A stretch of 64,000 nt of DNA from Candidatus Moraniibacteriota bacterium (GCA_035390125.1 DAOOTD010000002.1:105908-169907); one strand, 5' to 3'; numbered from the stretch's first letter, positions 7,768 to 59,054 are shown. The notes: a model not told the origin generated them from the letters alone. Numbers and translations: made by a program.

Positions 7768-8211
7768 ATGATCAGAAATAAAACAAAAACTATGGGTAAA
7801 ATATTATTTATTTGCATAACTTTTGTTTTTGCACTTTTTCTTTTGTTTTCACCTGTTGCACATGCAGCTATTATTACTTGCGGAGCAACCTCAGATGACA
7901 TGTGCACTTTGTGTGATATGGTTGCAGGATTCAATACTATTATCCAGTATCTAATGAAAATTTCAATCGGTGTTGCGCTGCTGGCCATATCCATAGGAGG
8001 GATTTTGTATGTTGTTTCTGCCGGTGAACCTGGAGCTGTTGAAACGGCAAAAAAAGCAATCAAAAACGGAATCATCGGATTTGTTATTGTTTTTTCAGCC
8101 TTTATTATAATCGGTACAGTGATAAGTTATTTAGGAGTACAGGAAGGAATGGGAATACGTTCAGGAGTAACCTGGGGGACATTTGACTGTACAGCAGCAG
8201 GTGTTCGATAG
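7768..8211 (+). CDS. VirB2/TrbC-like T4SS pilin-family protein (CPR-type pilin)
   Basis: Signal peptide (…SPVAHA), Cys-containing mature N-terminus, then TM helix – VSAGEPGAVETAKKAIKNG – TM helix. Same architecture as the paralogs at 8264, 24506, 24852, 25323 and 25730. Confidence 0.55.
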   Translation: MIRNKTKTMGKILFICITFVFALFLLFSPVAHAAIITCGATSDDMCTLCDMVAGFNTIIQYLMKISIGVALLAISIGGILYVVSAGEPGAVETAKKAIKNGIIGFVIVFSAFIIIGTVISYLGVQEGMGIRSGVTWGTFDCTAAGVR

Positions 8212-8263
8212 TAAACCAAAAAGTAATTTATCGTTAGATTTTATTAATAATTTTTTTAAAAAA

Positions 8264-8896
8264 ATGATAAAATTTAAAAAAAATAAACTATTTTTAATGG
8301 CCGTTTTTGTTTTTTTGGCAATGATTTTTTTAAACCCCGTTAACGTATTTGCAGAAGATGCGGTAGTGAACTTTACTAACCCTCTAGGAGATATTACTAC
8401 TCTAGAAGGACTTGTATCTAATTTACTGTCAGCCGTTCAAAAAATAATAGTCTCATTGGCTTTGGTTTTTATTGTGGTGGGTGCGATAATGGTCCTTGTT
8501 TCAGCGGGAAGTCCGGAAACTGTGGAAAAAGGGAAAAAAGCTATTACTATGGCAATAGTAGGTCTCACAATTGGAATTGCAGCCCCATCGATATTAAAAG
8601 AAATCGCGAATGCTGTCGGTTGGAATTGTCCTGAAGGAGCTACAGATTGTGGAACTCTTACTGATGCACTTAATTTTTCCGATATTGCACTAAATGTTCT
8701 TAGTTTTCTTTTAGGTATAGCGGGAATACTAGCCATGATAATGCTGGTCATTGGAGGTATCATGTATTTGACTTCTGCTGGAGATGAAGAAAGAGTAGAG
8801 CAGGGCAAGAAAACATTCAAGTATTCCGTAATCGGAATCATAGTCATTATGAGTTCCATGATAATAGTAAGACAAATTGCTAATCTTTTTTTATAA
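8264..8896 (+). CDS. Tandem double-domain VirB2/TrbC-like pilin
   Basis: Signal peptide (MIKFKKNKLFLMAVFVFLAMIFLNPVNVFA), then two consecutive pilin units (…VSAGSPETVEKGKKAITMAIVG… and …LTSAGDEERVEQGKKTFKYSVIG…). The ORF track begins at an upstream TTG (8183) overlapping the previous gene; the ATG at 8264 is preferred. Confidence 0.55.
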   Translation: MIKFKKNKLFLMAVFVFLAMIFLNPVNVFAEDAVVNFTNPLGDITTLEGLVSNLLSAVQKIIVSLALVFIVVGAIMVLVSAGSPETVEKGKKAITMAIVGLTIGIAAPSILKEIANAVGWNCPEGATDCGTLTDALNFSDIALNVLSFLLGIAGILAMIMLVIGGIMYLTSAGDEERVEQGKKTFKYSVIGIIVIMSSMIIVRQIANLFL

Positions 8897-8934: not shown

Positions 8935-9387
8935 ATGCTTATAAATGTTCCACAATATATAGATGTCGAAGATAAAATTGCAGGTCCGCTCACAGCTAAG
9001 CAGCTGGGGTGGGTTATAGGGCTAGGCATTACTCTTTTGGTAATGTGGAATATGTTGCCTAAGGTTTTGTTTTTTATTATAGGCATACCACTGTCCATTG
9101 CATTTTTAGCCTTTGCTTTTTACAAGCCATATGGTCAGCCACTGGGTAATTTTGTCATTTTTGGGATACTATATTTTTTCCGTCCAAAAATATATTTCTG
9201 GCAAAGAACTCCTCAGAAAAATATTCCCAGCAAGCAAAAAACAAAAACTGAAGAGTCCCGTCCGCCAGAAAAAAAACTTGATACTGAATCAATAATGGAT
9301 TTAGCAAGGGTCATGGACAGCGGTGGTTCTGAACGCAATGAAAGGATAGAAGAACTTTTAAAAAACGTTCCAATTAAAAAGAAATAA
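8935..9387 (+). CDS. PrgI/VirB3-like small conjugation membrane protein
   Basis: 150 aa; N-terminal VPQYIDVEDKIAGPLTAKQ motif then two TM helices and a K/E-rich tail. Directly upstream of the VirB4-family ATPase, as PrgI precedes PrgJ in Gram-positive T4SS. Confidence 0.45.
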   Translation: MLINVPQYIDVEDKIAGPLTAKQLGWVIGLGITLLVMWNMLPKVLFFIIGIPLSIAFLAFAFYKPYGQPLGNFVIFGILYFFRPKIYFWQRTPQKNIPSKQKTKTEESRPPEKKLDTESIMDLARVMDSGGSERNERIEELLKNVPIKKK

Positions 9388-9397
9388 CAAAAAAACC

Positions 9398-10087
9398 ATG
9401 GAATTATTGCACTCAAAAAATCTAACCAAAGGAACTTCCGGAGGAGGAAGTACCCAAAAATATGTCGACGTTGAAGAAGTCCGTGATGGGGTAGTTATAC
9501 TGAAAGATGGATCTATGCGCTCAGTACTTTTGGTTTCTTCAATTAATTTTGACTTAAAAGCTACAGAAGAACAAGATTCTATTATTAATCAATATCAAAA
9601 CTTTCTTAATTCACTAGATTTTCCAATTCAAATAGTGATAAGTTCGCGTAAACTGAATATTGCTCCTTATTTGGAATATCTTAAAAAAAAGGAAACACAA
9701 CTGACTAATGAATTGCTGATTTTACAGCTGGAAGAATATCGTAACTTCATAAAAAGCCTTACCGATGTTTCAAGTATAATGTCTAAATTCTTTTATGTGG
9801 TGGTGCCTTTCTACCCAGTTGAAAATGTTAAAACAAGTGTTTTTGACAGATTTTTCGGAGCTGCAAATACCCAGATGTCTGCTATGCGGAGAAGAGAACT
9901 TTTTGAAACTTACAAAAATCAGCTTTGGCAAAGAATAGAACATGTCAGTTCTGGTTTAAGCAGTACTGGCGTAAAAGCTGTTCCGCTTAAAACTGAAGAG
10001 CTTATAGAACTTTTGTATAATTCATATAATGCTACGACACATAATAATGCAATAATAAGAGATGTAGACAAGATTGAACTCAAATAA
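9398..10087 (+). CDS. VirB4/TraC-family ATPase, N-terminal domain (separate ORF)
   Basis: 229 aa; sequence (…VDVEEVRDGVVILKDGSMRSVLLVSSINFDLKATEEQDSIINQYQNFLNSL…) resembles the N-terminal domain of Gram-positive VirB4 homologues (TcpF/PrgJ type). Ends 72 nt before the ATPase ORF in a different frame. Confidence 0.5.
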   Translation: MELLHSKNLTKGTSGGGSTQKYVDVEEVRDGVVILKDGSMRSVLLVSSINFDLKATEEQDSIINQYQNFLNSLDFPIQIVISSRKLNIAPYLEYLKKKETQLTNELLILQLEEYRNFIKSLTDVSSIMSKFFYVVVPFYPVENVKTSVFDRFFGAANTQMSAMRRRELFETYKNQLWQRIEHVSSGLSSTGVKAVPLKTEELIELLYNSYNATTHNNAIIRDVDKIELK

Positions 10088-10158: not shown

Positions 10159-11982
10159 ATGCTTGGAATAAACAAAAAAAATGACAAAAAACAAACTGTA
10201 AAAAGGGATCCGATTTTAGAAAGTGAGGAATTATATCAGCGTGGTGTTGCAACTATAAAAGATCTTATCGCCCCTTCTGCAATGAAGGTAAGTTCAAATT
10301 ACTTGCAAATAGGCGAAACGTTTGCCAGAACCGTTTTTGTTGTTGCCTATCCTAGATATTTGCATACAAACTGGTTTTCTCCGATTATAAACATTGATTT
10401 TTCCATGGATACTGCGATGTTTATACATCCTATTGATACAGTTGAAATATTAAAAACCCTCAGGAAAACATCAACCCAAGTGCAATCGCAGATTCACATG
10501 GAAGAACAGTCGGGAAAAATCCGAAATCCAATTTTGGAAACAGCCATTGAAGATATAGAAGATTTGCGCGATAAGCTCCAGCAAGGAACTGAAAAATTTT
10601 TCCGCTTCGGGCTCTACATGACTTTATATGCAAATAATTTGGAAGAACTTGAAAAAATACATTTGCAAATAGAAGCACTTCTCGAGGCGCAAATGGTTTA
10701 CATCAAGCCAGCGGTGTTAAAAGCTGAACAAGGTTTTTCCTCTACTTTGCCATTGGGAAATGATGAAATAGATATTGCTAATAATCTCAATACAGCACCA
10801 CTTTCTACGACATTTCCTTTTGTATCTTCAGATCTTTCATCTAATGAGGGTATTCTTTATGGGATTAATCGACACAATAACAGCCTTATTCTTTTTGACA
10901 GATTCCAAATGGAAAATGCCAATATGGTAGTTTTTTCTAAATCTGGCGGAGGGAAAAGCTATACTGTGAAACTCGAAATATTCCGTTCGCTGATGGTTGG
11001 AACCAATGTTGTTGTCATTGATCCAGAAAATGAGTACAAATATTTGTGTGAAACAGTAGGGGGAACTTTCATAAAACTTTCACTTAATTCTCCATATCAT
11101 TTGAATCCATTCGATCTTCCTAAAATTGGCGATGAAGAAGATCCTGAAGATGTTCTTAGGAGCAACATAGCCAGTCTTATAGGACTGCTTCATCTTATGC
11201 TTGGCAATGTAACTCCCGAAGAAGATTCAATTCTGGATATAGCTATTCGTGAAACATATGCGATGCGTGATATTACTGCCCGAAGCAATTTTAAGGCTCT
11301 TAATTCATCTTCTTTTCCGACCATGTCGGACCTTTATGCTGTTATTCGAAATTCAGAAGGCGGAGAATCAATAGCAAAAAGATTGGAAAAATACACAGAG
11401 GGTATTTTTGCTGGGGTGCTTAATCATACAACAAATGTACAGGTTGATAATCAAATGGTTGTCTTTAATATACGCGATCTTGAAGAACAGCTTAGGCCCA
11501 TTGCCATGTATACAGTCTTGCAGTTTATCTGGAATGAAATGCGGTCTTCACTTAAAAAAAGAATTGTAGTTGTGGATGAAGCTTGGGTTATGATGCAAAA
11601 TGATGATGCAGCATCTTTTTTATTTGGTATTGCAAAGCGTTGCAGAAAATATTATACAGGCTTAACAACAATAACTCAGGACATAGCAGATTTTATGACC
11701 TCGCGCTATGGAAAGCCGGTAGTAACTAATTCGTCATTGCAGCTGCTATTGCGTCAGTCTCCGGCAGCTATAGAAACAATTTCTGACACCTTTTTTCTAA
11801 CTGATCAGGAAAAGTTTCTCTTATTGGAAAGTGGGGTTGGAGAAGGAATTCTTTTTGCGGGAGCAAAGCATGTTGCAATAAAAGTTATTGCTTCATATCC
11901 TGAAGATCAAATCATAACATCTGATCCGCGCCAATTGATTGAAATTGAACAAGCCAAAAAAGAATTGGAAGAAGATGAATAA
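10159..11982 (+). CDS. VirB4/TraC/TrbE-family type IV secretion ATPase (ATPase-domain ORF)
   Basis: 607 aa; Walker A FSKSGGGKSY, Walker B VVVDEAW, overall CagE/TrbE/VirB4 domain order. Confidence 0.8.
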   Translation: MLGINKKNDKKQTVKRDPILESEELYQRGVATIKDLIAPSAMKVSSNYLQIGETFARTVFVVAYPRYLHTNWFSPIINIDFSMDTAMFIHPIDTVEILKTLRKTSTQVQSQIHMEEQSGKIRNPILETAIEDIEDLRDKLQQGTEKFFRFGLYMTLYANNLEELEKIHLQIEALLEAQMVYIKPAVLKAEQGFSSTLPLGNDEIDIANNLNTAPLSTTFPFVSSDLSSNEGILYGINRHNNSLILFDRFQMENANMVVFSKSGGGKSYTVKLEIFRSLMVGTNVVVIDPENEYKYLCETVGGTFIKLSLNSPYHLNPFDLPKIGDEEDPEDVLRSNIASLIGLLHLMLGNVTPEEDSILDIAIRETYAMRDITARSNFKALNSSSFPTMSDLYAVIRNSEGGESIAKRLEKYTEGIFAGVLNHTTNVQVDNQMVVFNIRDLEEQLRPIAMYTVLQFIWNEMRSSLKKRIVVVDEAWVMMQNDDAASFLFGIAKRCRKYYTGLTTITQDIADFMTSRYGKPVVTNSSLQLLLRQSPAAIETISDTFFLTDQEKFLLLESGVGEGILFAGAKHVAIKVIASYPEDQIITSDPRQLIEIEQAKKELEEDE

Positions 11983-12015: not shown

Positions 12016-12519
12016 ATGCCTGAAGATATTGCAAGAAATTTTAAAAACAACAGCGATAACCTTGATAGAGCTAGGCGAGAAAGGCCCAGCTCTTTTAGCA
12101 ATGGAAATCCTGTTGATATGACAAAAAATATTTCTAAAGCGGCTATAGCTAAAGGTTTTTTCCCTTTACTGAAAGAAATAGATCTTTCCAAAGATATGCC
12201 ATTTGTAGCTGCGCTTCTGGGTGCTTTAGGAAAAGATGTCTCTGACTTTGTTTTTGCTGAAACAATAATACTTTCCATGCTTACCTCAATTCTTTGTTCT
12301 ATATTTATTTTCATGATGTTAATTCTTGCTGGTTCTGGGCGAAGAAATAAGTCGGCAAGAGGCTTTGCTAAAAAAGCACTTACATTAATAGGAGGCGGAG
12401 CAGCTGATTCATTGCCCGGAGTAGATTTTTTACCAATTGAAACACTTACTGTCGGAATGATATATATTATGGTGTTGGCAGAAAGAGCAAGTGAAAAAAA
12501 TAATAAATTCAAACTCTAA
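12016..12519 (+). CDS. Hypothetical membrane protein (T4SS-cluster associated)
   Basis: 167 aa ORF with ATG on the same strand as the flanking operon. Charged N-terminus plus two hydrophobic segments. The overlapping minus-strand ORF looks low-complexity and was not chosen. Confidence 0.3.
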   Translation: MPEDIARNFKNNSDNLDRARRERPSSFSNGNPVDMTKNISKAAIAKGFFPLLKEIDLSKDMPFVAALLGALGKDVSDFVFAETIILSMLTSILCSIFIFMMLILAGSGRRNKSARGFAKKALTLIGGGAADSLPGVDFLPIETLTVGMIYIMVLAERASEKNNKFKL

Positions 12520-12609: not shown

Positions 12610-14136
12610 ATGTCTTCTAAAATATATTCTGCCGCAACTATAGGTCTGGACGGAGAAATTGTAGAAGTTGAAGTTGATATTCTAGGATCCGGCCTGCACA
12701 ATTTTTCAATCGTTGGTCTCCCGGATATTGCAATCAAGGAGTCGCGTGATCGTGTTTCGAGTGCTATAAAAAATAGCGGATTTAAGCCACCACATCAGTG
12801 CGGTCGCATTACGGTGAATCTAGCTCCGGCAGACTTGCCAAAGGCCAGCCCTATTTATGATCTTCCTATCGCTATGGGATTTTTGCTTGCGACCAAACAA
12901 TTGCAATTTGATTTTAATGGCAGGATGATTGTAGGAGAACTTTCTCTTGACGGGCGCATACGTCCTATACAGGGAACTTTACCTATAGCTCTCTTGGCAA
13001 AAGAAAAGGGGTTTAATGAATTATATGTTCCATTAGAAAATGCAGCTGAAGCCAGTGTAGTTAAGGGAATAAATATTGTACCTGTAGATACTCTTTATTC
13101 TTTGGCTGATCATTTTTCTGGCAATAGAAAAATTGATTATTTCCCATCATTAGACGGGGATGTCCTATTTTCAACAGCAGATTATGAAATAGATATGGCT
13201 CATATTAAAGGTCAACAACATGCCAAGCGTGCTCTGGAAATTGCAGCAGCTGGTGGGCACAATGTTATTTTAAACGGACCTCCAGGATCAGGAAAGACTT
13301 TATTGGCTAAGGCTATTCCTACTATTCTCCCCCAGTTAACATTGGAAGAAGCATTGGAAATAACAAAAATATTTTCAGTTTCCGGAAAACTTAGGAAAGG
13401 ACAACCTCTAGTTACTTCAAGGCCATACAGAAATCCACATCATAGTGCCAGTAGTGTTTCTTTGATTGGTGGGGGGAGTTATCCAAAGCCTGGAGAAATA
13501 AGCTTAGCGCACAGGGGAGTTTTGTTTTTGGATGAGTTTGCTGAGTTTCCTAAAAGTGTTTTAGAGAATTTGCGCCAGCCACTTGAGGATGGTATGATAA
13601 CAATCTCAAGAGCCAAAGGATCTTTATATTTTCCAGCCCGGTTTATTTTGGTGGCCGCTATGAATCCCTGTTTTTGCGGGAACGCTACTGATCCGGAAAA
13701 AATATGCACATGTACGCCAGCACAGATTTCCCGGTATAAGCAAAAAATTTCTGGACCAATTATGGACCGCATTGATCTGCACATTGAAGTGCCACGTTTA
13801 AGTTTTGACAAGCTTCAAGAAGGAATAAGTGAAGAAAAAAGCGAGCAGATACGTGCCAGAGTGGAAGCAGCCAGAAAAATACAAGCTAAAAGATTTGAAA
13901 ATTTGTCGGTAATTTCTAACAGCGAAATGTCTTCTGATCAAATAAGACAATTTTGTCCTTTAGACGAAGAGTGCAAACAGCTTTTAAGAAATGCTGTATC
14001 AGCTCTAAAGCTTAGTGCCCGAGCTTATCACCGTATAATAAAAATCGCGCGTACTATTGCAGATCTTTCAAATAGTGAAAATATTCAGCCGGCACATATT
14101 GCCGAAGCCATTCAATACAGATTCAAAATGGAATGA
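12610..14136 (+). CDS. comM: YifB/ComM-family Mg-chelatase-like AAA+ ATPase
   Basis: 508 aa; N-terminal Lon-like domain (MSSKIYSAATIGLDGEIVEVEVDI), Walker A GPPGSGKT, Walker B LFLDEF, C-terminal ChlI/MoxR-like region. Confidence 0.85.
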   Translation: MSSKIYSAATIGLDGEIVEVEVDILGSGLHNFSIVGLPDIAIKESRDRVSSAIKNSGFKPPHQCGRITVNLAPADLPKASPIYDLPIAMGFLLATKQLQFDFNGRMIVGELSLDGRIRPIQGTLPIALLAKEKGFNELYVPLENAAEASVVKGINIVPVDTLYSLADHFSGNRKIDYFPSLDGDVLFSTADYEIDMAHIKGQQHAKRALEIAAAGGHNVILNGPPGSGKTLLAKAIPTILPQLTLEEALEITKIFSVSGKLRKGQPLVTSRPYRNPHHSASSVSLIGGGSYPKPGEISLAHRGVLFLDEFAEFPKSVLENLRQPLEDGMITISRAKGSLYFPARFILVAAMNPCFCGNATDPEKICTCTPAQISRYKQKISGPIMDRIDLHIEVPRLSFDKLQEGISEEKSEQIRARVEAARKIQAKRFENLSVISNSEMSSDQIRQFCPLDEECKQLLRNAVSALKLSARAYHRIIKIARTIADLSNSENIQPAHIAEAIQYRFKME

Positions 14137-15089
14137 TAAGAATTTCAAAAAAACTAAAATACATCTTTTTTTTAACTGGACTGGCAATCCTTTTTTTCTT
14201 TATATTCAATAAAGATAAAAATGATATTGCTATAAACTTTAATTCTGAAAAAAAGAAAATTGAATTGACTGATAGCAATATCACTTTTGAATTAATGTCT
14301 GCGGCCAAAACTGTAGAAGATTTTATGAACGAGCAAAAAATAGTCCTGGAAGAAAATGATTTAATTGTGCCTGATAAAAATAAAGAAATTTTTTCTGGTA
14401 CTCATATAATCATCAAACGAGCAAAAAACATAACAATTAAAGAAGCGGATAAAAAAACTAAAACGCATACTCTTTTGGATACTATCGAGCAAGCTGTTTG
14501 GGAGAATAAAGAAATAACTTTGTCCGATGATGATATTACGAATCCATCAAGGCGAGTATTGGTCAAAGAAGAAATGACAATTATTGTTACACATGTTGTC
14601 ATAAAAGAAGAAATAAAAAAGCAGGATATCGATTTCAAAACAATTTCTAATGAAGATGATAAATTAGGTTGGCGCGTTAAAAAAGTCACCCAAAAAGGAA
14701 TAAAAGGCACGCGTGAAATAAAATATAAAGTAGTTTATCATGACAATAAGGAAATATCGCGCAAAATTCTGGAAAGCAATGTTACAAAAGAACCAATTGA
14801 AGAAATTGTTACGCAAGGAACATATATGAAATTAGGCAAGGCTAATAAAGGACAGGGTACCTGGTATGCCTGGAAAGGGGGACTTTTTGCTGCCAGCACG
14901 ACTCTTCCGCGCGGCGCATATGCCAAGGTGACCAATGCGGAAAATGGCAAATCGGTCGTTGTCCAAATCAATGATTATGGCCCGCAAGGTAAAGGACGCA
15001 TTATTGATTTGGACAAAGTTGCTTTTGAAAAAATAGCTTCATTAGGTGCGGGAGTTATTGGAGTCAAAGTGGAGCAAGTACTCAATTAG
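14133..15089 (+). CDS. RlpA-like double-psi beta-barrel (DPBB) domain protein, secreted/anchored
   Basis: 318 aa; N-terminal TM/signal anchor. C-terminal GTWYAWKGGLFAAS…VVVQINDYGPQGKGRIIDLDKVAFEKI matches the RlpA/expansin-like DPBB fold motif. Start overlaps the comM stop (ATGGAATGA). Confidence 0.55.
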   Translation: MIRISKKLKYIFFLTGLAILFFFIFNKDKNDIAINFNSEKKKIELTDSNITFELMSAAKTVEDFMNEQKIVLEENDLIVPDKNKEIFSGTHIIIKRAKNITIKEADKKTKTHTLLDTIEQAVWENKEITLSDDDITNPSRRVLVKEEMTIIVTHVVIKEEIKKQDIDFKTISNEDDKLGWRVKKVTQKGIKGTREIKYKVVYHDNKEISRKILESNVTKEPIEEIVTQGTYMKLGKANKGQGTWYAWKGGLFAASTTLPRGAYAKVTNAENGKSVVVQINDYGPQGKGRIIDLDKVAFEKIASLGAGVIGVKVEQVLN

Positions 15090-18178: not shown

Positions 18179-19090
18179 TTATTTCTTTTTTCCGTGAAAC
18201 TGCTTGTGTATTTCTTTGAGTTGCTTGTTGGTAATGTGCGTATAAATTTGAGTTGTCGTTATGGAAGAATGTCCCAACATTGTTTGCACGCTTCGGATGT
18301 CAGCTCCATTAGAAAGTAAGTCTGTGGCAAAACTATGCCTTAGCGTGTGCGGATGTACATTTTTCACGATACCTGCTTTGGCTGCATAAAATTTTACTAT
18401 TCTTTGAATTGAACGTGGGGTCAAGCGCTTTGTTTTTTCGTTTCCAATTCCCCCTTTTTCGGATAATCGAATAAATAAAGCCGGATCCAAGTCCATGCGC
18501 TTGCTCAAATATTTTTCCAACGCCTCTTTTGCAGTATCAGAAATGAAAACTATTCTCATTTTATCGCCCTTGCCAATCACGCTAAATTCTTGTCTGGAAA
18601 TGTTCAATTGGTCGCAGTTTATATTTATAAGTTCAGAAACACGAAGTCCTGCCGAAAAAAGAAGCTCCAAGATTGCCCTATCGCGCATGGACTTTATGTC
18701 TGATCCTTCTGCGGCATGCAAAAGGCGGTCAAGCTCACCACTATCAAGAAACTCAATTTCATGTGATGGATTTTTACCAACTTCCAATTTTTCAGCGGCC
18801 AAACTTTTAATATCGCGCTTGGCAAGATATTTCAGAAAACTGCGGATGGCTATTATATGATAATTTTGAGTAACTTTTTTCAGTTCCTTGCCATGGCTAT
18901 CTTTCTGCCGGTTCAGATATAAACGGTAGCTCCTTATAAGCTCAGCAGTGATATCCTTGGGTTCGGATATTTTTGCCCAGGTCAAAAAGCGCTTGAGATA
19001 ATGATGATAATTCTCAATAGTCTTCTGCGAACGGTTACGTTCAATCTCCAAATATTCAAGAAATTCAGTCAGAAGGTTTTTTAATTTCAT
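18179..19090 (-). CDS. xerC: Tyrosine site-specific recombinase (XerC/XerD-like)
   Basis: 303 aa; catalytic R…HxxR…Y pattern (HTLRHSFATDLL, …QIYTHI), N-terminal SAM-like core-binding domain. Confidence 0.8.
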   Translation of the reverse strand: MKLKNLLTEFLEYLEIERNRSQKTIENYHHYLKRFLTWAKISEPKDITAELIRSYRLYLNRQKDSHGKELKKVTQNYHIIAIRSFLKYLAKRDIKSLAAEKLEVGKNPSHEIEFLDSGELDRLLHAAEGSDIKSMRDRAILELLFSAGLRVSELININCDQLNISRQEFSVIGKGDKMRIVFISDTAKEALEKYLSKRMDLDPALFIRLSEKGGIGNEKTKRLTPRSIQRIVKFYAAKAGIVKNVHPHTLRHSFATDLLSNGADIRSVQTMLGHSSITTTQIYTHITNKQLKEIHKQFHGKKK

Positions 19091-19234
19091 AAATTATTTC
19101 CGATTATTCATAAAAAAGCTTTTCATGCCTTTTACGATCTAATTGTACTCTTTTTTTGAAATATAAAAAAGATATAACCCCAAAAAATGGCTTAAAAAAA
19201 GGAAAAAAAATAATTTTAAGACAAAACATCTTTG

Positions 19235-19265
19235 ACAAAAATATCCCTAGGTATATACTTGAAAC
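19235..19265 (+). promoter_or_regulatory. Candidate sigma70-like promoter (TTGACA, about 17 nt, ATACTT/TATATA) for the hydrolase/VirB6 module
   Basis: Perfect TTGACA hexamer at 19235-19240 with an A/T-rich -10-like hexamer about 17 nt downstream; lies in a 415-bp intergenic region. Confidence 0.25.
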
Positions 19266-19505
19266 CAGTTAAAAATTAAGGTTGCGGGTGATGAGTAATG
19301 ACATGAGGCGGTTTTTTATCATTATTCTCTAAGCCTGTCAACCAACCGAAAGGACTTATTTATTAGCAAAAAATCCATTTTTTCTTATATATACGAATCA
19401 ATCAGAAAAATTGACCTCAAGGGCTTAAACACTAAAATTCATCTTAAACAACGCTCAATAGCAAACTTCATAAAGGAGCACAGAACCATAAAACTGCTCC
19501 ACGTT

Positions 19506-20567
19506 TTGCGTAATTATTCAGCCTTTGCAGTGGTGGTATCAAGTTCACTTCTTGTTTCAGCAACAAATGTTGCCTCAGGCAATAATTATGGCAAACTTCT
19601 TTTTGGTTATTGGGATGCATCAGCTGAGACCATTCCAGCGGTGAATGGCAGTAAAATAAGCGGACAGGTAAATAAAAAAAATGATTTAGCTCTTGTTCCC
19701 CTTTCCAAATCAAACACATCCATTGAACCAGAAAAAAAAGAAGATGATTCAAACAGGAGCATTATAAAGGATGACGGAATAATGCTGGTTTCTGGCGGAG
19801 CCAATCCGATGAAAGATCCTGAAGAAGAGGGCGGGGTTAAAATGTATATTGTACAATCCGGTGACACTCTCGGTTCAATCGCTGAAAAAAATGGAGTTTC
19901 GGTTAATACTATTTTGTGGGCAAATGACATCAGTAATGCCGACTCCATAATGCCAGGAGATACTATGTTCATTCTGCCTGTTTCAGGAGTAAAATATGTC
20001 ATAAAATCGGGAGACAATCTTGATGCTATCGCTAATAAATTTAAAGCAGAAAAAGATAAAATAATAGCCTTTAATGATTTGCCAGCGAATGGAGAAATAA
20101 AAGTGGGAGAAGAAATAATTATTCCTGATGGCCAGGGAGAAGCTCCTAAGCCAGCTGTTCCAAGCAGCAGCCAATCCTTAATCAATAAGAGGCAATATGC
20201 GAATACTGCAGGAGGAGTTCCCCAGATTACGGGCAGAATTCTTTCAGGGAAAGCCGGCACTGGTCATAGATTTCCATATGGATATTGCACTTGGTTTGTC
20301 GCCCAGAAACGTTATGTTCCCTGGGGTGGCAACGCTGGAACATGGCTGTACCATGCAAAAGCTGCCGGGTATGCAACCGGAAAAACTCCACGACCAGGAG
20401 CTATCGTAGTGACTACCGAGAACAGATATTATGGTCATGTGGCTTATGTTGAAAAAGTCAGCGGAAACAGTTTTACTGTTTCTGAAATGAATTATGTCGG
20501 TTATGCAAAAACAAGTCGCAGAACAATCTCAACTTCAAGCAGAGTTATTAAAGGTTTCATTTATTAA
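19506..20567 (+). CDS. Secreted peptidoglycan hydrolase with two LysM domains and a C-terminal CHAP amidase/peptidase domain
   Basis: Signal peptide; LysM repeats (YIVQSGDTLGSIAEKNGVS…, YVIKSGDNLDAIANKF…); CHAP Cys (GYCTWFVAQKR) and His (GHVAYVEKV). The ORF-track start is a TTG at 19506; the true start is uncertain. Confidence 0.75.
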   Translation: MRNYSAFAVVVSSSLLVSATNVASGNNYGKLLFGYWDASAETIPAVNGSKISGQVNKKNDLALVPLSKSNTSIEPEKKEDDSNRSIIKDDGIMLVSGGANPMKDPEEEGGVKMYIVQSGDTLGSIAEKNGVSVNTILWANDISNADSIMPGDTMFILPVSGVKYVIKSGDNLDAIANKFKAEKDKIIAFNDLPANGEIKVGEEIIIPDGQGEAPKPAVPSSSQSLINKRQYANTAGGVPQITGRILSGKAGTGHRFPYGYCTWFVAQKRYVPWGGNAGTWLYHAKAAGYATGKTPRPGAIVVTTENRYYGHVAYVEKVSGNSFTVSEMNYVGYAKTSRRTISTSSRVIKGFIY

Positions 20568-20642
20568 AATTGGCTGGTTAAAACAGGTTGAAAAAGTTAA
20601 ATTTTATATATAAATATAAAATATTTTCGTGAAAATAAATAA

Positions 20643-20678
20643 AGCCCCGTTTTTGTTAAAAGGGGCTTTTTATTTTTT
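20643..20678 (+). terminator. Rho-independent terminator
   Basis: AGCCCC-gtttttgttaaaa-GGGGCT stem-loop followed by TTTTTATTTTTT. Confidence 0.6.
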
Positions 20679-20689
20679 GATTAAAGTTA

Positions 20690-20719
20690 TTGCCTGACAT
20701 TACGAAAGTATGCTATAAT
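20690..20719 (+). promoter_or_regulatory. Candidate promoter: TTGCCT -35, 18 nt, extended TGcTATAAT -10
   Basis: Perfect TATAAT at 20714-20719 with TG two bases upstream, 31 nt before the VirB6-like ORF start. Confidence 0.35.
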
Positions 20720-20749
20720 TTTCACATATAGAATTAGATTGGAATCCTA

Positions 20750-22711
20750 ATGAATCTGATCTCGAAAAACAAAAAATTTTTCTGCAAAATCAAATTATTT
20801 TTTGGAATTTCCAGGGTTAAACTGGCAAGTCTTTTGCGGGACAAAAAATTCCAAACTTTTGTGGTCGCCGGATGCATTTTTCTTTGCGTCTTTTTTTTGG
20901 CGGTTCATGGGGTCTTTGCCGCTGACGCTGTTCCTGAAAAACCCGAAGAACCGGGTTTATTAAGTAAATTTTTTGGGGGAATACTTGATGGGGCAAGTGC
21001 AGTTTTTGTCACTGCCATATCCTTTATCTTGAGTGCAATTCAAGGCGTTATGAGTTTTCTAATCGGCGTGGCAGCTTCTCTTTTTTCAGCAGTTATTAAT
21101 CCTGATTTAATTTCCGGAGATAAAGGTTTATTGAACAATAATCCAGTTGTTAAGGATATCTGGATTATGGTGCGGGATACTTTCAATATGTTTTTTATTC
21201 TAGTCCTTCTTTTTTCCGCCTTCTGCACTATTTTCCAGATCGAAAAATGGAACCTTAAAAAAGTCTGGCTCAACATTCTCATCAATGCCCTGCTGGTTAA
21301 TTTCAGTTTTCCAATTGCATGCTTTTTTATTGATGTTGCGAATGTAGCTATGTATTATTTTGTTAATTCTATGTTTGGTGACAATACTGGCGCAGTTACA
21401 GGAAACGCAATTTTTGCCCAGTTGGGGGATGAATCAAGACTTTCGGCATTGTGGGGCCATGATGCTGATGGAACTACGATGCTAATGTATCAGGTTATGA
21501 ATATCATAATGTCTTTTATTTTGGGAATAACACTCTTGGTTTGTGCAGTTCTTTTTGCTATAAGGCTTATAGCCCTGGTAATCCTGGTTATGTTTTCGCC
21601 GATAGGTTTTGTCGGTTACATTTTTCCCGCAACCAGTAAATTTGCAGACGACTGGTGGAAAAATCTTTTCAGCTATTCTTTTTTTGGTCCGATAATGATT
21701 TTTGTCATAGGAGTTGCTGTCAAAATAAACCAATCAATAGGTGAAAATATATTTAAACAGTCGGCCGCTGACAATGCTGCATCGGTTCCTGGCGCAAGCG
21801 AATGGATTGCCAGTGCTTCCATGTTTGCTATTCCCATAATCATTTTGTGGATGGGCATGGGAGTAGCAAAATCATTGGGAATCGCAGGGGCGGATACAGT
21901 GGTTGGGGCAGGACAGAAATTTGCAAAATTTGCCGGTACAGCTACAGCCATGGCAGCTGGCGGAAATTGGGCTGCAAAGAATTGGAAGATGTATAAAGAA
22001 AAGCGTGATGAACGCCAAAAAGAGATTGACAAGAAACGTTTTGGGGGAAGCTTCGCCAAAGGACTCAATAAATGGGAAGATACTGGAATTGGTTTTGCAG
22101 GTGAAAAAATATCAAAAGGTATTGGAAAAGCTACTGGTGGCAAATGGACACCTAAGTTTGGAGAAAATGCTAAGGCAAGAGTCAAAGGATATCAGAACAC
22201 GGAATTTGATGAATTAGCTAAAAAACAGGCTGAGAGAATTAAGAATTCTGAAGACACTGGACATACTGCACAACAAATGAATGATTTTATTAAAAATAAT
22301 AATCAAATAACAGACGAATCAAAAGATTCAGAGGTAAATGATTTCGTTGGCAGATACAAACAAATGAGAGAAGATCCAGGAGCAAAAGCTGCTTTTGAAT
22401 ATAACATTAGAAACAATGCGGACAATATAAGGCAGTCAATTGAACAAGGAAAAATAGAGGCACAAAAATTAGTTGATAATGGTACTTTTGAAGAGGGATC
22501 TAATGAACATAAGGCCGCAATGAATTCTTTCCAAAAATCTCACATGGAGTCAATTGTAAAAAATCACTGGGCTCATTTAGCTCAAGAAAATAAGAACGCC
22601 CAGAAAAGGAAGAAAGGCGAAAAAATTAAGGATGATGAGCATAAGGCACCTCCTCCACCTCCTCTACCTCCTCCACCAAAACCTGCAAAACAGAGAGCTG
22701 GTTTTGTTTAA
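20750..22711 (+). CDS. VirB6/TrbL-like polytopic membrane protein with proline-rich C-terminal tail
   Basis: 653 aa; signal/anchor then about 7 hydrophobic helices over the first 370 aa, then a long hydrophilic K/E/Q-rich C-terminal domain ending KAPPPPPLPPPPKPAKQRAGFV. Call based on topology and neighbourhood only. Confidence 0.4.
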   Translation: MNLISKNKKFFCKIKLFFGISRVKLASLLRDKKFQTFVVAGCIFLCVFFLAVHGVFAADAVPEKPEEPGLLSKFFGGILDGASAVFVTAISFILSAIQGVMSFLIGVAASLFSAVINPDLISGDKGLLNNNPVVKDIWIMVRDTFNMFFILVLLFSAFCTIFQIEKWNLKKVWLNILINALLVNFSFPIACFFIDVANVAMYYFVNSMFGDNTGAVTGNAIFAQLGDESRLSALWGHDADGTTMLMYQVMNIIMSFILGITLLVCAVLFAIRLIALVILVMFSPIGFVGYIFPATSKFADDWWKNLFSYSFFGPIMIFVIGVAVKINQSIGENIFKQSAADNAASVPGASEWIASASMFAIPIIILWMGMGVAKSLGIAGADTVVGAGQKFAKFAGTATAMAAGGNWAAKNWKMYKEKRDERQKEIDKKRFGGSFAKGLNKWEDTGIGFAGEKISKGIGKATGGKWTPKFGENAKARVKGYQNTEFDELAKKQAERIKNSEDTGHTAQQMNDFIKNNNQITDESKDSEVNDFVGRYKQMREDPGAKAAFEYNIRNNADNIRQSIEQGKIEAQKLVDNGTFEEGSNEHKAAMNSFQKSHMESIVKNHWAHLAQENKNAQKRKKGEKIKDDEHKAPPPPPLPPPPKPAKQRAGFV

Positions 22712-22753
22712 TATACAGATAAAAATGTCAAGAATATTTTTTAATAAATTGTT

Positions 22754-23152
22754 ATGGATATAGATGCTATAAAAGACAGACTGACGAATAAATTTTCTTT
22801 GCCGCACGTTTCTTTTGAACAGGACACGATAGAACAAAAGAAATTGCTTGCGCTGTATGTGCTTGCTTCTGATAGCCAGCTTGTGTTGTTGCCGACTTAT
22901 TTTGCTTTTTCTTATCCCGCTTTCATTGCCGGTCTTAATGAAAAACATATTGAATATATAGCCAAAAACGCTCCAGCTGATTACAAAAGAGAGCTTATGA
23001 AAGCAATCAGCCAGAGCTACGTGCTGAAAGAAGTTTTTGAAATTGCAAAATCCATGGATGAAGATTTGGGCAGAAGCAGCACAACTAATCAGGACAGAAT
23101 AAAAAATGTCATGCGGTATATCAGGGATAACAGAGTAATTTTTGAATTCTAA
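22754..23152 (+). CDS. Hypothetical protein (T4SS-cluster associated)
   Basis: 132 aa soluble ORF, ATG start, protein-like composition. The overlapping minus ORF is not protein-like. Confidence 0.4.
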   Translation: MDIDAIKDRLTNKFSLPHVSFEQDTIEQKKLLALYVLASDSQLVLLPTYFAFSYPAFIAGLNEKHIEYIAKNAPADYKRELMKAISQSYVLKEVFEIAKSMDEDLGRSSTTNQDRIKNVMRYIRDNRVIFEF

Positions 23153-23162
23153 AAAACAAAAA

Positions 23163-24500
23163 ATGACAGTCATATATACAAATCAAAACAACATCTCTCC
23201 CAAAAATAATGCCGGCCAGTATGATTTGAATGAGGAAAGGAAAATAGCGGATGAAATAACCGAAGAGATAAAAGAAGACCTTATTGAAAAATGGAGAACA
23301 ACATATGAAAATGCTGAAATTTTTCCGTATAAAATCAGTGCCATGCATTCGGATGTCCTTGATTTTCTCTTGGGATTTGATCTGATTTCCATTTATGACA
23401 ATATAGCCAGACAGGCAGGACTTGATATGAAAGGCAGAAGCATTCTTCCTCAAGTTGTGTGGAGCGTTGCGCAAAGCAAAAAATGGAGTGAGGCAGAACA
23501 GGAATTGCAGAAAAGAATATTGCTTCCCCCGAATACTAAAGCTTTGACTTTGCAGCTTCTTGAACAAAACATAATAAGCAAACTTATCATGCTTTCGGCT
23601 AAGCCTTCGGCCAAAAAAAGTCCTGCCCAGAGCGAAACAGAAAGAAGAATCCAGTTGCCGCTTTCAGAAGCATTGCAAAAATACAAGGAACTGGGAGAAC
23701 AAAACATTACTATCAATCAGCTGAAACTCAAATATTTTCCTACGCCTGTCAGGCCATCTATAAGAAACTGGATTACTGATTTCCATGACAACATGGGAAG
23801 CGGAAAGCATGGTACAGTCGATAGGGCGAATTATTTATTTCACAGCGAAAATGGGAAAAAACTCACGCCCGTAGAAAGGCAGAAACTTTCATTGATTCTT
23901 AAATCACTGGACGAAAAAACTCCTTTAATCATCGATACGGAACTGCAACGGATTATTTTCACAGAAGGCAAGGTTTTTCCAAATGAACAAACTGAAAATT
24001 TGCCAAGCCGGAGCGGACAAACAGCAGAAATAAATATGTATTCAAAAAATGAAGAGTCTAATAGCTTTGCTGCTATAGAAGATAATTATCTGCAAGTTCC
24101 GAAATATCAGCCGCCCCAAGAAAATAAAAAATATTCTCCCAACTTCAAGGACTTGACGGAGCCGAGCGTTTTGCCGGAACAAAAAATAGTAAATTCAAAT
24201 CAGGATGATTCAAGAGGTTCGGTTGTGGATGAAGGCAAGGTAAGTTTTTCTTCTCCGCAAAAGTTTTCAAATGAAAAAGAAAATGAAAAACCAATAAGGC
24301 CTGCTAGTACGATTAGCCAGCAAAAAACATTTATGACCCCAACGCCACAAGCAGATAGAGAAAAAACATTTGGAAATAAAGCATCTGAAATAAAACCGTG
24401 GGTCATCAAGCCGTCTGCTTATTTTAATGAAGAAAAAACGGATGAAGAACAAACTTTACAGGCAAAAATAAGAGGAAACATTGTTGATTTAAAAGGCTGA
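23163..24500 (+). CDS. Hypothetical protein with low-complexity Q/K/E/P-rich C-terminal half
   Basis: Long ORF on the operon strand. The ORF-track start is a TTG at 23142; the ATG at 23163 is preferred. No recognisable motif. Confidence 0.4.
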   Translation: MTVIYTNQNNISPKNNAGQYDLNEERKIADEITEEIKEDLIEKWRTTYENAEIFPYKISAMHSDVLDFLLGFDLISIYDNIARQAGLDMKGRSILPQVVWSVAQSKKWSEAEQELQKRILLPPNTKALTLQLLEQNIISKLIMLSAKPSAKKSPAQSETERRIQLPLSEALQKYKELGEQNITINQLKLKYFPTPVRPSIRNWITDFHDNMGSGKHGTVDRANYLFHSENGKKLTPVERQKLSLILKSLDEKTPLIIDTELQRIIFTEGKVFPNEQTENLPSRSGQTAEINMYSKNEESNSFAAIEDNYLQVPKYQPPQENKKYSPNFKDLTEPSVLPEQKIVNSNQDDSRGSVVDEGKVSFSSPQKFSNEKENEKPIRPASTISQQKTFMTPTPQADREKTFGNKASEIKPWVIKPSAYFNEEKTDEEQTLQAKIRGNIVDLKG

Positions 24501-24505
24501 AAATT

Positions 24506-24778
24506 ATGGATATCATAAATACAGCATATGCAGGAGTTATTACAGACGCTCCTACAGTAAGAGAAATTGGAGCGAATGTTCTGTCTTTTTTATTGTCAAT
24601 AATGGGAATAATTGCTATAATATCATTAGTTGTCTCTGGAATAATGTATTTTTTTTCAGCCGGCGACTATAAAAGAATAGAGATTGCAAAAAAATCCACC
24701 AAATACTCAATACTGGGAATCGTCATTGCCTTAGGAGGAATGATAATAATCAGATTTATCGGCAGTTTTTTAAATTAA
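24506..24778 (+). CDS. VirB2/TrbC-like pilin-family protein (paralog 3)
   Basis: 90 aa; TM – FSAGDYKRIEIAKKSTKYSILG – TM; same motif as the other paralogs. Confidence 0.55.
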   Translation: MDIINTAYAGVITDAPTVREIGANVLSFLLSIMGIIAIISLVVSGIMYFFSAGDYKRIEIAKKSTKYSILGIVIALGGMIIIRFIGSFLN

Positions 24779-24851
24779 TCAGGATTCAAACGAATAAAGG
24801 AAAGTTTAAAATAAATAAAAAAATTTATAAACTAGAATGGGAGGTGTTACT

Positions 24852-25199
24852 ATGCTGAATAAAGTTAAAAAAATTTTTTATGCAATCGCCAGTTTAATCG
24901 CAATTGCTCCATCAGCAGTTTTGGCTATCAATGTGCCTGATGCAGATCTTCCGGATGCAACCCTTACAGATATAATCACTGGTTTTATGAACTGGCTTTT
25001 AGCTATCGTAGGTATTTTAGCAGTTATAGGATTCGTTATCGCTGGAATTATATATCTTACAGCTGCTGGAGATGAAGACCAGATCGCTCGTGGCAAGAAA
25101 ACCATGATTTACTCGTTGGTAGGTATTATCGTGGCTCTTATGGGAGTCATAATAATCAAAGCGGTGCAGTCAATGTTGGGCGGTGGCAGCAGTTTCTAA
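24852..25199 (+). CDS. VirB2/TrbC-like pilin-family protein (paralog 4)
   Basis: GGAGGT Shine-Dalgarno 7 nt upstream of the ATG at 24852 (ORF-track start 24837). Signal peptide …APSAVLA; TM – LTAAGDEDQIARGKKTMIYSLVG – TM. Confidence 0.6.
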   Translation: MLNKVKKIFYAIASLIAIAPSAVLAINVPDADLPDATLTDIITGFMNWLLAIVGILAVIGFVIAGIIYLTAAGDEDQIARGKKTMIYSLVGIIVALMGVIIIKAVQSMLGGGSSF

Positions 25200-25226
25200 A
25201 TTTTTTGTATGCATATAAAAGCAGAA

Positions 25227-25252
25227 GGCGATTCCTCGGAATCGTCTTTTTT
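25227..25252 (+). terminator. Rho-independent terminator
   Basis: GACGATTCC/GGAATCGTC stem (1 mismatch) followed by TTTTTT. Confidence 0.5.
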
Positions 25253-25322
25253 GCAAAGTGTACATAATTTAAGGATTATGATATAATTAAATTATAATAA
25301 TAATTTTTTATACTTTAAAAAA

Positions 25323-25685
25323 ATGAATATCAAAAAGAAAACATTGGGTACTATTATTTCAACAATTCTACTTTTTCCAATGTCTGTTCTGGCCGCAGAT
25401 GGAGAAGGATGGCAAATAGGAGATGATTATGGTCTTCCTACGGGAACCATAAGCGGAATTCTCGAGGGTCTTTTGAATTGGCTTTTGGGAATTTTTGCAG
25501 TCTTAGGAGTTATAGGCTTTATAATTTCAGGAATTATGTATTTAGTGTCCGCAGGTGATGAAGACGGAATTGCACGAGCTAAAAAAGCTATGATTTACTC
25601 GCTGATAGGAATTATTGTCGGCCTTTCCGGTATTATCCTGATAGCAGCTGTGGATAGCTTTTTAATGGGTAGCGGTACATTCTAA
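25323..25685 (+). CDS. VirB2/TrbC-like pilin-family protein (paralog 5)
   Basis: 120 aa; signal peptide …MSVLA; TM – VSAGDEDGIARAKKAMIYSLIG – TM; about 50 percent identical by eye to paralog 4. Confidence 0.6.
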   Translation: MNIKKKTLGTIISTILLFPMSVLAADGEGWQIGDDYGLPTGTISGILEGLLNWLLGIFAVLGVIGFIISGIMYLVSAGDEDGIARAKKAMIYSLIGIIVGLSGIILIAAVDSFLMGSGTF

Positions 25686-25729
25686 AATTCTTAATGACCT
25701 ATTTTTATCACCAATAATCTGCTAAAAAA

Positions 25730-26227
25730 ATGATCAAAACAAGAAAAAATATCTTTCTATTTTTTGTTGCAATATCTTTTGTAAGCTTGTTTTTTGTGAG
25801 TGTTGATATAACAAAAGCTGGGGATGCTGAATATGCTAGTTGTCTACTGGGTTGTTCTCCTACGGATACTGAGTGTACTCGTGCATGCAGAGCTCTTAGA
25901 GGAGATGGTGAAGGAGATTGCGGTGCAGGCTTTACACCTGTCGGCGGGGTTTGTTTCCCTGATGAAACAGGGTTGCCAGACTCTCAGGATATTCCGGGAA
26001 TTCTTTCCAGCGTATTAAAATGGCTATTGGGAATATTTTCAACCATTGCGCTCATCTCATTTGTGATATCCGGCGTGTTATATATTACTTCATCCGGCGA
26101 CACCGACCAGATCGAAAAGGCAAAACGCAATGCTTTGTATTCTATTTTAGGCGTTATCGTGGGTCTTTCTGGGTATATCATAATTGTGGCGATTCAGGCT
26201 GCTCTGGGAGGAAACAGTACGTTTTGA
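25730..26227 (+). CDS. VirB2/TrbC-like pilin-family protein with Cys-rich N-terminal extension (paralog 6)
   Basis: 165 aa; signal anchor, then an 8-Cys module (CLLGCSPTDTECTRACRALRGDGEGDCGAGFTPVGGVCF), then TM – TSSGDTDQIEKAKRNALYSILG – TM. Confidence 0.55.
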   Translation: MIKTRKNIFLFFVAISFVSLFFVSVDITKAGDAEYASCLLGCSPTDTECTRACRALRGDGEGDCGAGFTPVGGVCFPDETGLPDSQDIPGILSSVLKWLLGIFSTIALISFVISGVLYITSSGDTDQIEKAKRNALYSILGVIVGLSGYIIIVAIQAALGGNSTF

Positions 26228-26278
26228 TTGACATTTGCGAGGATTATTGCTAATATTAAAACGGATGGAAAGAAGTGG

Positions 26279-26303
26279 GTTCGCATGGATGCGGACTCTT
26301 TTT
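26279..26303 (+). terminator. Candidate Rho-independent terminator
   Basis: GTTCGCAT-gg-ATGCGGAC imperfect hairpin followed by TCTTTTT. Confidence 0.4.
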
Positions 26304-39352: not shown

Positions 39353-40057
39353 TTAGAAGGCGATAATCAGACCTAACCGAATTTTATCAGTTATATCTGT
39401 TTCCCTTTCCATTGTGGTCACTGTTGTTGATTCCGCTATTGTTTCTACCGCAACTTTTTTAACATTCCATTCGCGAGAAACTCGAATGTAAATGCTTACA
39501 TCTTTGGTTATTTGGTAGACTGCCCTCGGGCCGAAGAAATACCAATTGTGTTCGTTTCCTTCCCACCAATGATCATAACCGAAATCAATTCCAGCCGAAA
39601 GCTTATCGGTAATAGGATACATAACTCGCACAAAATTATCGATGTATCCATTTTCCTGACTTGTTATGCTGAAGTAATTTCGGGCATCCACTAAAACCTT
39701 GAATTTCCCGAAACTATCTGCATACCAAATTCCTACCTGGAAAAAATCACTGCCTGTATCGTTAGTGGACAATCCTACTAAAGCCGACAACGGTCCTTTG
39801 GAAAACTGGATTGAGGGCTTAATTGTGAACGAGTGACTTTCGCTGATATAACTGGTTTCCAGCAAACCGGAATACTGTTTGTATTTCCAGAAAGCGTTCA
39901 AAGATTGGCCAGTTATATTTTCTCCTTTCTCCGGATAGACAAAGTCACTAATTCTAATATCGATTGATCCGGAAATTTTTTCGGAATTTGCATCCTGGGC
40001 GAGAGCTGAACCTGCCGTCAAAAACATTACACATATCCAAATGAAAAACTTTTTCAT
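39353..40057 (-). CDS. Secreted beta-strand-rich protein, outer-membrane beta-barrel-like
   Basis: 234 aa; strong AGGAGG RBS; signal peptide …SALAQD; alternating hydrophobic/polar dyads throughout; C-terminal …LGLIIAF with terminal Phe. Confidence 0.45.
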   Translation of the reverse strand: MKKFFIWICVMFLTAGSALAQDANSEKISGSIDIRISDFVYPEKGENITGQSLNAFWKYKQYSGLLETSYISESHSFTIKPSIQFSKGPLSALVGLSTNDTGSDFFQVGIWYADSFGKFKVLVDARNYFSITSQENGYIDNFVRVMYPITDKLSAGIDFGYDHWWEGNEHNWYFFGPRAVYQITKDVSIYIRVSREWNVKKVAVETIAESTTVTTMERETDITDKIRLGLIIAF

Positions 40058-47166: not shown

Positions 47167-47343
47167 AAATACTTAAAGGACTTTTTCCTGGTTAATGATT
47201 TTTTAATTGATAATAGATGTCTCTTGGATTAATCCTACTTGTGGTAGGTTTTTTATTATGATTATTTTTTGTAATTTTTGTCTATTTATAGTACAATTAC
47301 ACTAAACTTGAACGGAATAGGAATATTTAAACAAAAAATAATT

Positions 47344-57635: not shown

Positions 57636-57639
57636 AAAA

Positions 57640-59049: not shown

Positions 59050-59054
59050 ATTAT

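Follow-up and report, generated by a model that had tools for sequence, protein, structure and literature searches.

The DNA considered here is a 64-kb stretch of the chromosome of a member of Candidatus Moranbacteria (Patescibacteria), which we call the window, and the element in question is a block of eight genes at positions 19506-26227. Proteins identical to its own are encoded in metagenome-assembled genomes of Candidatus Moranbacteria, on contigs of up to 375 kb. This block is very probably the second half of one chromosomal type IV secretion system (T4SS) of the Patescibacteria type, related to the MPF-FATA class, whose other half, with the VirB4 ATPase, lies upstream in the same window. 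All eight open reading frames (ORFs) placed in the block by a preliminary description are found there, all on the plus strand, and profile searches bear out its assignments, including the two proteins that match nothing:

19506-20567 (+): peptidoglycan hydrolase with two LysM domains, a CHAP domain and a signal-peptide-like N-terminus (Pfam LysM, E 3e-22, two stretches; CHAP, PF05257, E 7e-19)
20750-22711 (+): VirB6/TrbL-like polytopic membrane protein, 653 aa (TrbL/VirB6, PF04610, 28.5 bits against a cut-off of 25.9)
22754-23152 (+): u132, 132 aa, without transmembrane (TM) segments, found only between VirB6 and X
23163-24500 (+): X, 445 aa, without TM segments, linked to VirB6, no family match
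24506-24778 (+): VirB2-like pilin 1, 90 aa, no obvious leader peptide (T4SS_pilin, PF18895, 29.9 bits against 26.6)
24837-25199 (+): VirB2-like pilin 2, 120 aa, signal peptide and two helices (PF18895, 44.9 bits)
25323-25685 (+): VirB2-like pilin 3, 120 aa (PF18895, 34.5 bits)
25730-26227 (+): VirB2-like pilin 4, 165 aa, Cys-rich N-terminal insertion (PF18895, 34.9 bits)

The VirB4 module ends at position 11982, 7.5 kb upstream of the block, in agreement with the distance of about 7 kb, beyond comM-ksgA-uvrD-xerC, given in the preliminary description. The gene order upstream of the block is solute-binding protein, pilin, two-domain pilin ORF, PrgI/VirB3, TrsD-like protein, VirB4, u167, comM, G5-DPBB, ksgA, uvrD and, on the minus strand, xerC, so that six genes, from u167 to xerC, part the two halves. 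The genes on which the argument draws are:

7768-8896 (+): two more pilin genes of the same system, the second an ORF with two PF18895 stretches
8935-9387 (+): PrgI/VirB3-like membrane protein (PF12666, E 2e-9)
9398-10087 (+): TrsD-like protein, 229 aa (NCBIfam matches to the VirB4 N-region and to TrsD)
10159-11982 (+): VirB4 ATPase, 607 aa (P-loop_TraG, E 1e-27; AAA_10; DUF87)
12016-12519 (+): u167, a 167-aa membrane protein directly 3' of VirB4

Since VirB4, VirB3 and VirB6 each occur once in the window, the two blocks are complementary halves of one machine, and the block at 19506-26227 is not the "second" T4SS-like module that it had been taken for. That the halves were parted by a rearrangement follows from the gene order in related genomes. 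A profile of the core of X (alignment A4) retrieved 128 species-level genomes, from which 80 loci were kept, almost all of them from metagenome-assembled genomes (MAGs) of Moraniibacteriota, Parcubacteria or Patescibacteria; the ORFs of these loci were labelled by the window's own proteins and by the pilin profile. The region upstream of X was readable in 73 loci and held VirB6 in all of them without exception, directly before X in 64 and separated from it by u132 in nine. Downstream, X is followed by PrgI-TrsD-VirB4 in 44 of the 80 loci, by the pilin array in 29 and by nusA in seven.

Loci with a layout like that of the window read ksgA-uvrD-xerC(-)-LysMCHAP-VirB6-[u132]-X-pilins-nusA, and those with a contiguous layout comM-G5DPBB-ksgA-VirB6-[u132]-X-PrgI-TrsD-VirB4-u167-pilins. 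Five further loci (L030, L042, L050, L052, L079) are hybrids of the form xerC(-)-LysMCHAP-VirB6-X-PrgI-TrsD-VirB4. Because X stands directly before PrgI-TrsD-VirB4 in 44 of 80 loci, we read the window's arrangement as one system split by rearrangement; the ancestral order, documented by the 80 species loci, is VirB6-X-PrgI-TrsD-VirB4. The preliminary description had named missing co-conservation with VirB4 as grounds for giving up a connection to the T4SS, and co-conservation turns out to be strong. Independent confirmation comes from the database Pfam annotation of two contiguous-layout loci, L005 and L006, which lists PrgI, TraC-like and P-loop_TraG directly after the X homologue. Between the window and L005, VirB4 is 69% identical, and VirB6 and X about 32%.

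The block carries promoter-like and terminator-like signals of its own, as the preliminary description had supposed:

19232-19259 (+): promoter-like site, TTGACA-16-TATACT, 11 of 12 consensus matches (a consensus match only)
20690-20719: second promoter-like site, within the 183-nt gap between the hydrolase gene and VirB6
26277-26298 (+): terminator-like hairpin, 9-bp stem with five GC pairs followed by TTTTT, between the last pilin gene and nusA, the downstream neighbour of the block

The first of these sites lies inside the 416-nt divergent gap between xerC on the minus strand and the hydrolase gene. From VirB6 to the first pilin gene the intergenic spacings are 42, 10 and 5 nt, which suggests that these genes share one transcript.

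Such signals, together with the tyrosine recombinase gene (xerC, 18179-19090, minus strand) that adjoins the block immediately 5', might point to an independent second T4SS, or to what is left of an integrated conjugative element that this recombinase had introduced. The recombinase, however, is XerC/D-like and in many species occupies the same place, with uvrD on one side and the hydrolase gene on the other, and the GC content of the window is uniform, with 0.36-0.39 in the block as in the remainder. Furthermore, VirB4, VirB3 and TrsD are all lacking from the block, whose genes are the exact complement of those in the upstream module, and in the majority of related species, as described above, the genes of the block are contiguous with VirB4. 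Finally, a scan of the window's ORFs detected neither a VirD4/coupling-protein nor a relaxase domain; it covered the larger ORFs before 27.6 kb and, bar a few nested ones, those of at least 130 aa beyond 36 kb. Taken together, this makes a separate or imported system very improbable.

VirB6-like protein, pilins and hydrolase of the block

The 653-aa protein is, by its sequence, VirB6/TrbL-like. A hydropathy scan places its TM-like segments within residues 32-381, where they merge, by our reading, into about seven hydrophobic stretches; the C-terminal domain after them is hydrophilic, measures about 270 aa and has a poly-proline tail ending in APPPPPLPPPPKP. This corresponds to the polytopic architecture expected of the family, with at least five TM helices and an optional large hydrophilic extension. 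TrbL is matched by six of 24 members of the VirB6 family and no other family recurs; the C-terminal domain yielded nothing in the PHROGs scan. As expected for a gene in operon with VirB3 and VirB4, the VirB6 homologues of contiguous loci lie one gene 5' of PrgI-TrsD-VirB4, and in L005 and L006 the membrane protein before X-PrgI-TrsD-VirB4 is 32% identical to that of the window.

All four pilins of the block show the VirB2 topology of two hydrophobic helices in the hydropathy scan. The paralogues are 34-50% identical to pilin 1 over the aligned stretch, and no DNA-level repeats, which would be a sign of gene conversion, were found among the pilin genes. Of the two pilin genes upstream, the ORF at 8183-8896 (+) is a tandem double pilin with two PF18895 stretches. 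Its listed TTG start overlaps the preceding pilin gene by 29 nt, and the true start may therefore lie further downstream.

In the hydrolase at 19506-20567, the motifs GYCTWF and GHVAYVE, which we take to contain the catalytic Cys and His of the CHAP domain, are intact. Searches of Pfam and NCBIfam found only LysM and CHAP in this protein and no SLT or lysozyme-like lytic transglycosylase domain. By analogy with other systems, we consider it a candidate VirB1-type wall-opening enzyme.

Several points weigh against assigning every part of the block to a T4SS. The PF04610 match of the 653-aa protein lies just 2.6 bits over its threshold, and the VirB6 family profile had no sequence match in PDB at E up to 1. 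The 10-kb flanks of the related loci are too short to show VirB4 in window-like loci other than the window itself. For 27.6-36 kb of the window there is the annotation of the source database, which gives most of the stretch as housekeeping; elsewhere the Pfam scan covered ORFs of about 130 aa and more. The roles proposed below for X and u132 draw on synteny, predicted location and motif architecture. The remaining points concern the hydrolase, which may be a housekeeping neighbour of the cluster: the best NCBIfam likeness of its CHAP domain is PcsB, a cell-separation hydrolase; no LysM-CHAP gene was detected near VirB6 in the 39 loci of purely contiguous layout; and L005 and L006, the two of these inspected gene by gene, have an SLT-domain protein at the far end of the cluster instead.

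If so, the enzyme would be a wall or cell-separation hydrolase standing beside the system by chance, and the T4SS block proper would begin at VirB6, from which the hydrolase gene is indeed set apart by the 183-nt gap and the promoter-like site within it. Against this, the LysM-CHAP gene stands between xerC on the minus strand and VirB6, on the strand of VirB6, in every related locus where both were detected, including the five hybrid loci that have VirB4 downstream. In addition, VirB1-type hydrolases of monoderm T4SSs, such as TraG of pIP501 and PrgK of pCF10, contain CHAP domains. VirB1 homologues with LysM domains have also been reported in association with virB4, mainly in Paceibacteria (PMC12102498). 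We therefore regard a chance neighbourhood as possible but doubtful, and keep the hydrolase as a candidate member of the system.

The 5' region of the hydrolase gene has some features of its own. A leader of about 245 nt (19260-19505, plus strand) separates the best promoter-like site from the start codon; Rfam finds no riboswitch or other known RNA in it, and the whole window yields one tRNA only. Since a strong AAGGAG (19473-19478) sits 27 nt 5' of the TTG called as start, translation may in fact begin upstream of this TTG, at one of two unusual codons (ATA at 19488 or CTG at 19494).

X and u132

X is the constant companion of VirB6 and has no match in Pfam, NCBIfam or PHROGs. Its start is the ATG at 23163, as in the preliminary description, and not the TTG at 23142, as homologues align from that residue. 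A word-indexed search gave 81 homologues, and the profile of the core retrieved 1147 representative clusters at E up to 1e-3, of which 438 remain when the limit is set to 1e-30, so that the family comprises at least 1147 clusters at 50% identity. In a Pfam scan of 29 family members at E up to 1, merely scattered chance matches of single members appeared; the family profile had no hits in PDB at E up to 1, and tblastn found no match to X in 72,556 plasmids.

The predicted model of X consists of a helical N-terminal domain (residues 60-146), a small alpha/beta core (160-270) and a disordered tail of 175 residues (270-445). The N-terminal domain and the residues before it vary in sequence between subgroups. 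The core of 110 residues is predicted with a pLDDT (predicted local distance difference test) of about 92; it has eight invariant and many near-invariant residues, mostly polar, and includes the stretch RPSIKNWITDF...GKH...DRGNYLFHSENGKKL...ERQKL. Known motifs were considered for this core and set aside: by eye, the sequence GSGKH is not the GK[ST] of a Walker A motif, nor is there a Fic motif, and the R-x5-H spacing is similar to that of the HEPN motif, but some homologues have Q, R or G in place of the His.

Conservation extends into the disordered tail, which carries the short motifs VSFSSPQK(L/F)P and W/Y-x-I-x-P and, at the extreme C-terminus, N-[IVTM]-[IV]-[DN]-L-[KRS], in simplified form N-V-V-D/N-L-K/R and in the window copy GNIVDLK. 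Of 84 X proteins, 72-75 have this last motif. Outside X, it is absent from the ORFs of the window and from all labelled ORFs of the loci, and we therefore rejected the idea that it is a tag shared with other proteins.

u132 likewise has no match in Pfam, NCBIfam or PHROGs. Its predicted model is all-helical. Apart from the window's own sequence, seven homologues were found, with 51-59% identity; the gene is present in nine of the 80 species loci, where VirB6 and X invariably flank it, and occurs in both layouts. By this distribution of sequences, u132 is a sporadic, lineage-specific accessory gene, and its lack of TM segments would place the product in the cytoplasm. The possibility that it is a split-off piece of the C-terminal domain of VirB6 or of the N-terminal domain of X was dismissed, hhalign giving probabilities below 1%.

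For both proteins the preliminary description had considered VirB8/TcpC-like folds. A VirB8/TcpC/PrgL-like identity did not hold: the hydropathy scan shows no hydrophobic segment in either u132 or X, and thus no N-terminal TM anchor; neither has the NTF2-like alpha+beta fold; and neither model resembles a solved structure.

Unstructured C-terminal signals generally engage T4SS ATPases, and a docking of X on VirB4/TrsD or on VirB6 would follow this pattern. We tentatively propose, as a reading that may well prove wrong, that X represents a Patescibacteria-specific, unnamed family of T4SS components: a cytoplasmic hub, constantly with VirB6, whose C-terminal peptide plugs into VirB4/TrsD or into the cytoplasmic domain of VirB6 and which either stands in for the coupling protein, as recruiter of substrates or gate, or is itself the conserved translocated substrate of these systems without relaxase. 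X could alternatively be a transcriptional regulator or another DNA-binding protein of the operon. It has no match to a helix-turn-helix or other DNA-binding family, though, and a disordered tail of 175 residues with conserved peptide motifs would be unusual in a bacterial repressor, which leaves a regulatory role unlikely.

Relation to known type IV secretion systems and proposed function

In the saccharibacterium Southlakia, epibiotic growth requires a T4SS that has an essential pilin array but neither a relaxase nor a coupling protein that could be recognised (Wang et al. 2023, PMC10633639). A survey of the phylum by Quinonero-Coronel et al. (2025, PMC12102498) reported that VirB4 forms a clade related to the MPF-FATA class of monoderms; it found TrsD and PrgI to be abundant and recorded VirB6, arrays in which 2-11 divergent VirB2 pilins stand together, and ksgA as a frequent neighbour of virB4. 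Genes within 20 coding sequences of virB4 were counted as associated. By that measure the block, and all six pilin genes of the window, are associated with virB4. The window shows the same set of features: an MPF-FATA-related VirB4, a separate TrsD-like protein and PrgI/VirB3 beside virB4, pilin arrays, neither relaxase nor coupling protein among the scanned ORFs, and a housekeeping chromosomal context, with ksgA, uvrD and nusA flanking the system. The Moranbacteria system thus is the Patescibacteria T4SS already described, including its pilin arrays (PMC10633639, PMC12102498); what is new is the lineage and the layout, together with X as a closely linked family of components without a name. 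X and u132 are unnamed in the main texts of these two studies, where unmatched neighbours stay unannotated.

The closest counterpart is the T4SS of Southlakia epibionticum (SEML1_0006-0019) and other Patescibacteria, with which the present system shares its chromosomal location, VirB4 with a separate TrsD-like protein, PrgI/VirB3, VirB6, arrays of divergent PF18895 pilins, a nearby wall hydrolase, a cluster without relaxase or coupling protein, and ksgA close to virB4. It differs in being laid out in two blocks with six genes between them. With the MPF-FATA systems (pCF10 Prg, pIP501 Tra, pGO1 Trs, the CTn2/CD1110 family) it has in common a VirB4 of about 35% identity, the PrgI and TrsD matches and a CHAP wall hydrolase, and both are without outer-membrane core components. 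The best plasmid relatives of VirB4 are from Firmicutes and Actinobacteria and annotated as CD1110 family, as judged from best matches. MPF-FATA systems, however, possess a relaxase, a coupling protein, VirB8-like proteins and surface adhesins and have no VirB2 pilins, whereas here there are six pilin genes, no VirB8-like protein and, among the scanned ORFs, no relaxase or coupling protein; the hydrolase has LysM domains in place of the SLT domain, and X is without a counterpart on plasmids. Several divergent VirB2 paralogues in tandem beside one machine are also found in the T4SSs of Bartonella and Anaplasma, but these are diderm pathogens of animal cells in which antigenic variation is the proposed driver. 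The pilins studied here, in contrast, share 34-50% identity with pilin 1 and have no DNA-level repeats, and the host, if there is one, would be another microbe.

By analogy with these systems, the machine may work as follows. The LysM-CHAP enzyme, exported by the Sec pathway, would anchor to peptidoglycan, cut peptide stems and so make room for the machine, which is the role of VirB1. The VirB6-like protein and PrgI/VirB3 would form the membrane translocon, to be powered by the split VirB4 (TrsD-like protein and ATPase) encoded 7.5 kb upstream. The six VirB2-like pilins may provide the subunits, which VirB4 would pull out of the membrane to build a pilus or conduit directed at a host cell. X, and u132 where present, would act at the cytoplasmic face of the machine, X docking by its conserved C-terminal peptide motifs on the C-terminal domain of VirB6 or on VirB4/TrsD and serving either as an adaptor or gate in place of the missing coupling protein or as a conserved substrate.

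Since neither relaxase nor coupling protein was detected in the scanned ORFs, and following the transposon sequencing (Tn-seq) work on Southlakia, we infer that the system may serve an epibiotic interaction with a host, by transfer of proteins or other cargo, and not conjugation. One might instead think of DNA uptake, as in ComB-like systems, or of DNA release: comM, the gene of a competence-associated helicase, follows the VirB4 module and lies near the cluster in many related loci, and uvrD and xerC stand between the halves. In the class ABY1, T4SS loci have been reported beside comF, recG and radA (PMC12102498). The order of comM, G5-DPBB and ksgA resembles conserved housekeeping synteny, though, and the G5 gene yabE is presumably close to ksgA in Bacillus subtilis, too. 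Competence in Southlakia needs type IV pili and ComEC, and its T4SS is still essential in a comEC mutant, according to the summary in PMC12857230. With neither a relaxase nor a coupling protein among the scanned ORFs, transport of DNA in place of exchange of proteins or nutrients with a host appears to us to have little probability.

Before that of the Patescibacteria, no T4SS had been shown to be essential for its own bearer. The window adds little to this general picture; it shows that the Moranbacteria version is one system cut in two by rearrangement. It also points to X, with its large family and its constant link to VirB6, as a specific candidate for the cytoplasmic component that is missing from the machine.

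Neighbouring genes and further observations

In the upstream module, VirB4 is split, its N-region being encoded apart as the TrsD-like protein just 5' of the ATPase, and the related loci are alike in this; their TrsD-like homologues carry PF26593, TraC-like. The protein u167 has two hydrophobic segments and no family match, nor did the PHROGs scan yield anything. As its homologues keep the position after VirB4 in most contiguous-layout loci, where they were detected, u167 is probably another unnamed membrane component associated with the T4SS. The G5-DPBB protein (DPBB gene at 14133-15089) was considered as the missing transglycosylase half of VirB1 and rejected, because it stays beside ksgA in any T4SS layout; by this synteny it is probably a housekeeping gene and not part of the T4SS. 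Just 5' of the module, the ORF at 6314-7762 (+) encodes an extracellular solute-binding protein of 482 aa (SBP_bac_1), with a gap of 5 nt to the first of the upstream pilin genes. The last 40 residues of this protein have a weak likeness, below the cut-off, to the receptor-binding head domain of a lactococcal phage (E 0.0025).

In L005 (14851-20113) and L006 (13146-18765), VirB4 is followed by two unmatched proteins of 213-237 aa, a protein of about 1000 aa and the SLT-domain protein, whose SLT domain in L006 is fused to a pilin domain. One of the two smaller proteins, in L006, is a homologue of u167; the others had no counterpart in the 64-kb window by tblastn. Between UbiA on the minus strand and VirB6, the same loci (L005 5011-7063, L006 4561-6734) encode a TSP3_bac-repeat protein and an unmatched protein of 312-342 aa, which may be further members of the cluster and are absent from the window. 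Many of the MAG records with the cluster (L011, L020, L026, L028, L032, L035, L040 and others) are titled 'uncultured Bdellovibrionales bacterium', which looks like mislabelled taxonomy.

The remaining ORFs scanned in the window encode housekeeping or cell-surface proteins. A 234-aa ORF at 39353-40057 (-) matches Porin_4, a family of Gram-negative porins, below the threshold (E 3e-5; 24.5 bits, cut-off 27), which would be odd in a presumed monoderm and is probably due to chance. A cluster at 56979-61081 (+) comprises a 7TM_transglut membrane protein, a fusion of ATP-grasp and Zn-protease, a second, RimK-like ATP-grasp protein and a family-1 glycosyltransferase. The 647-aa protein encoded at 53189-55132 (+) has three lamin-tail domains and a PKD domain and is probably a surface or adhesion protein. 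The ORF at 47278-50361 (+), of 1027 aa, matches the T2SSE profile (PilB/GspE-type, 758 bits) in two separate stretches, with P-loop hits near residues 320 and 750-800, and by its sequence seems to join two complete ATPase domains of the secretion or pilus type in tandem.

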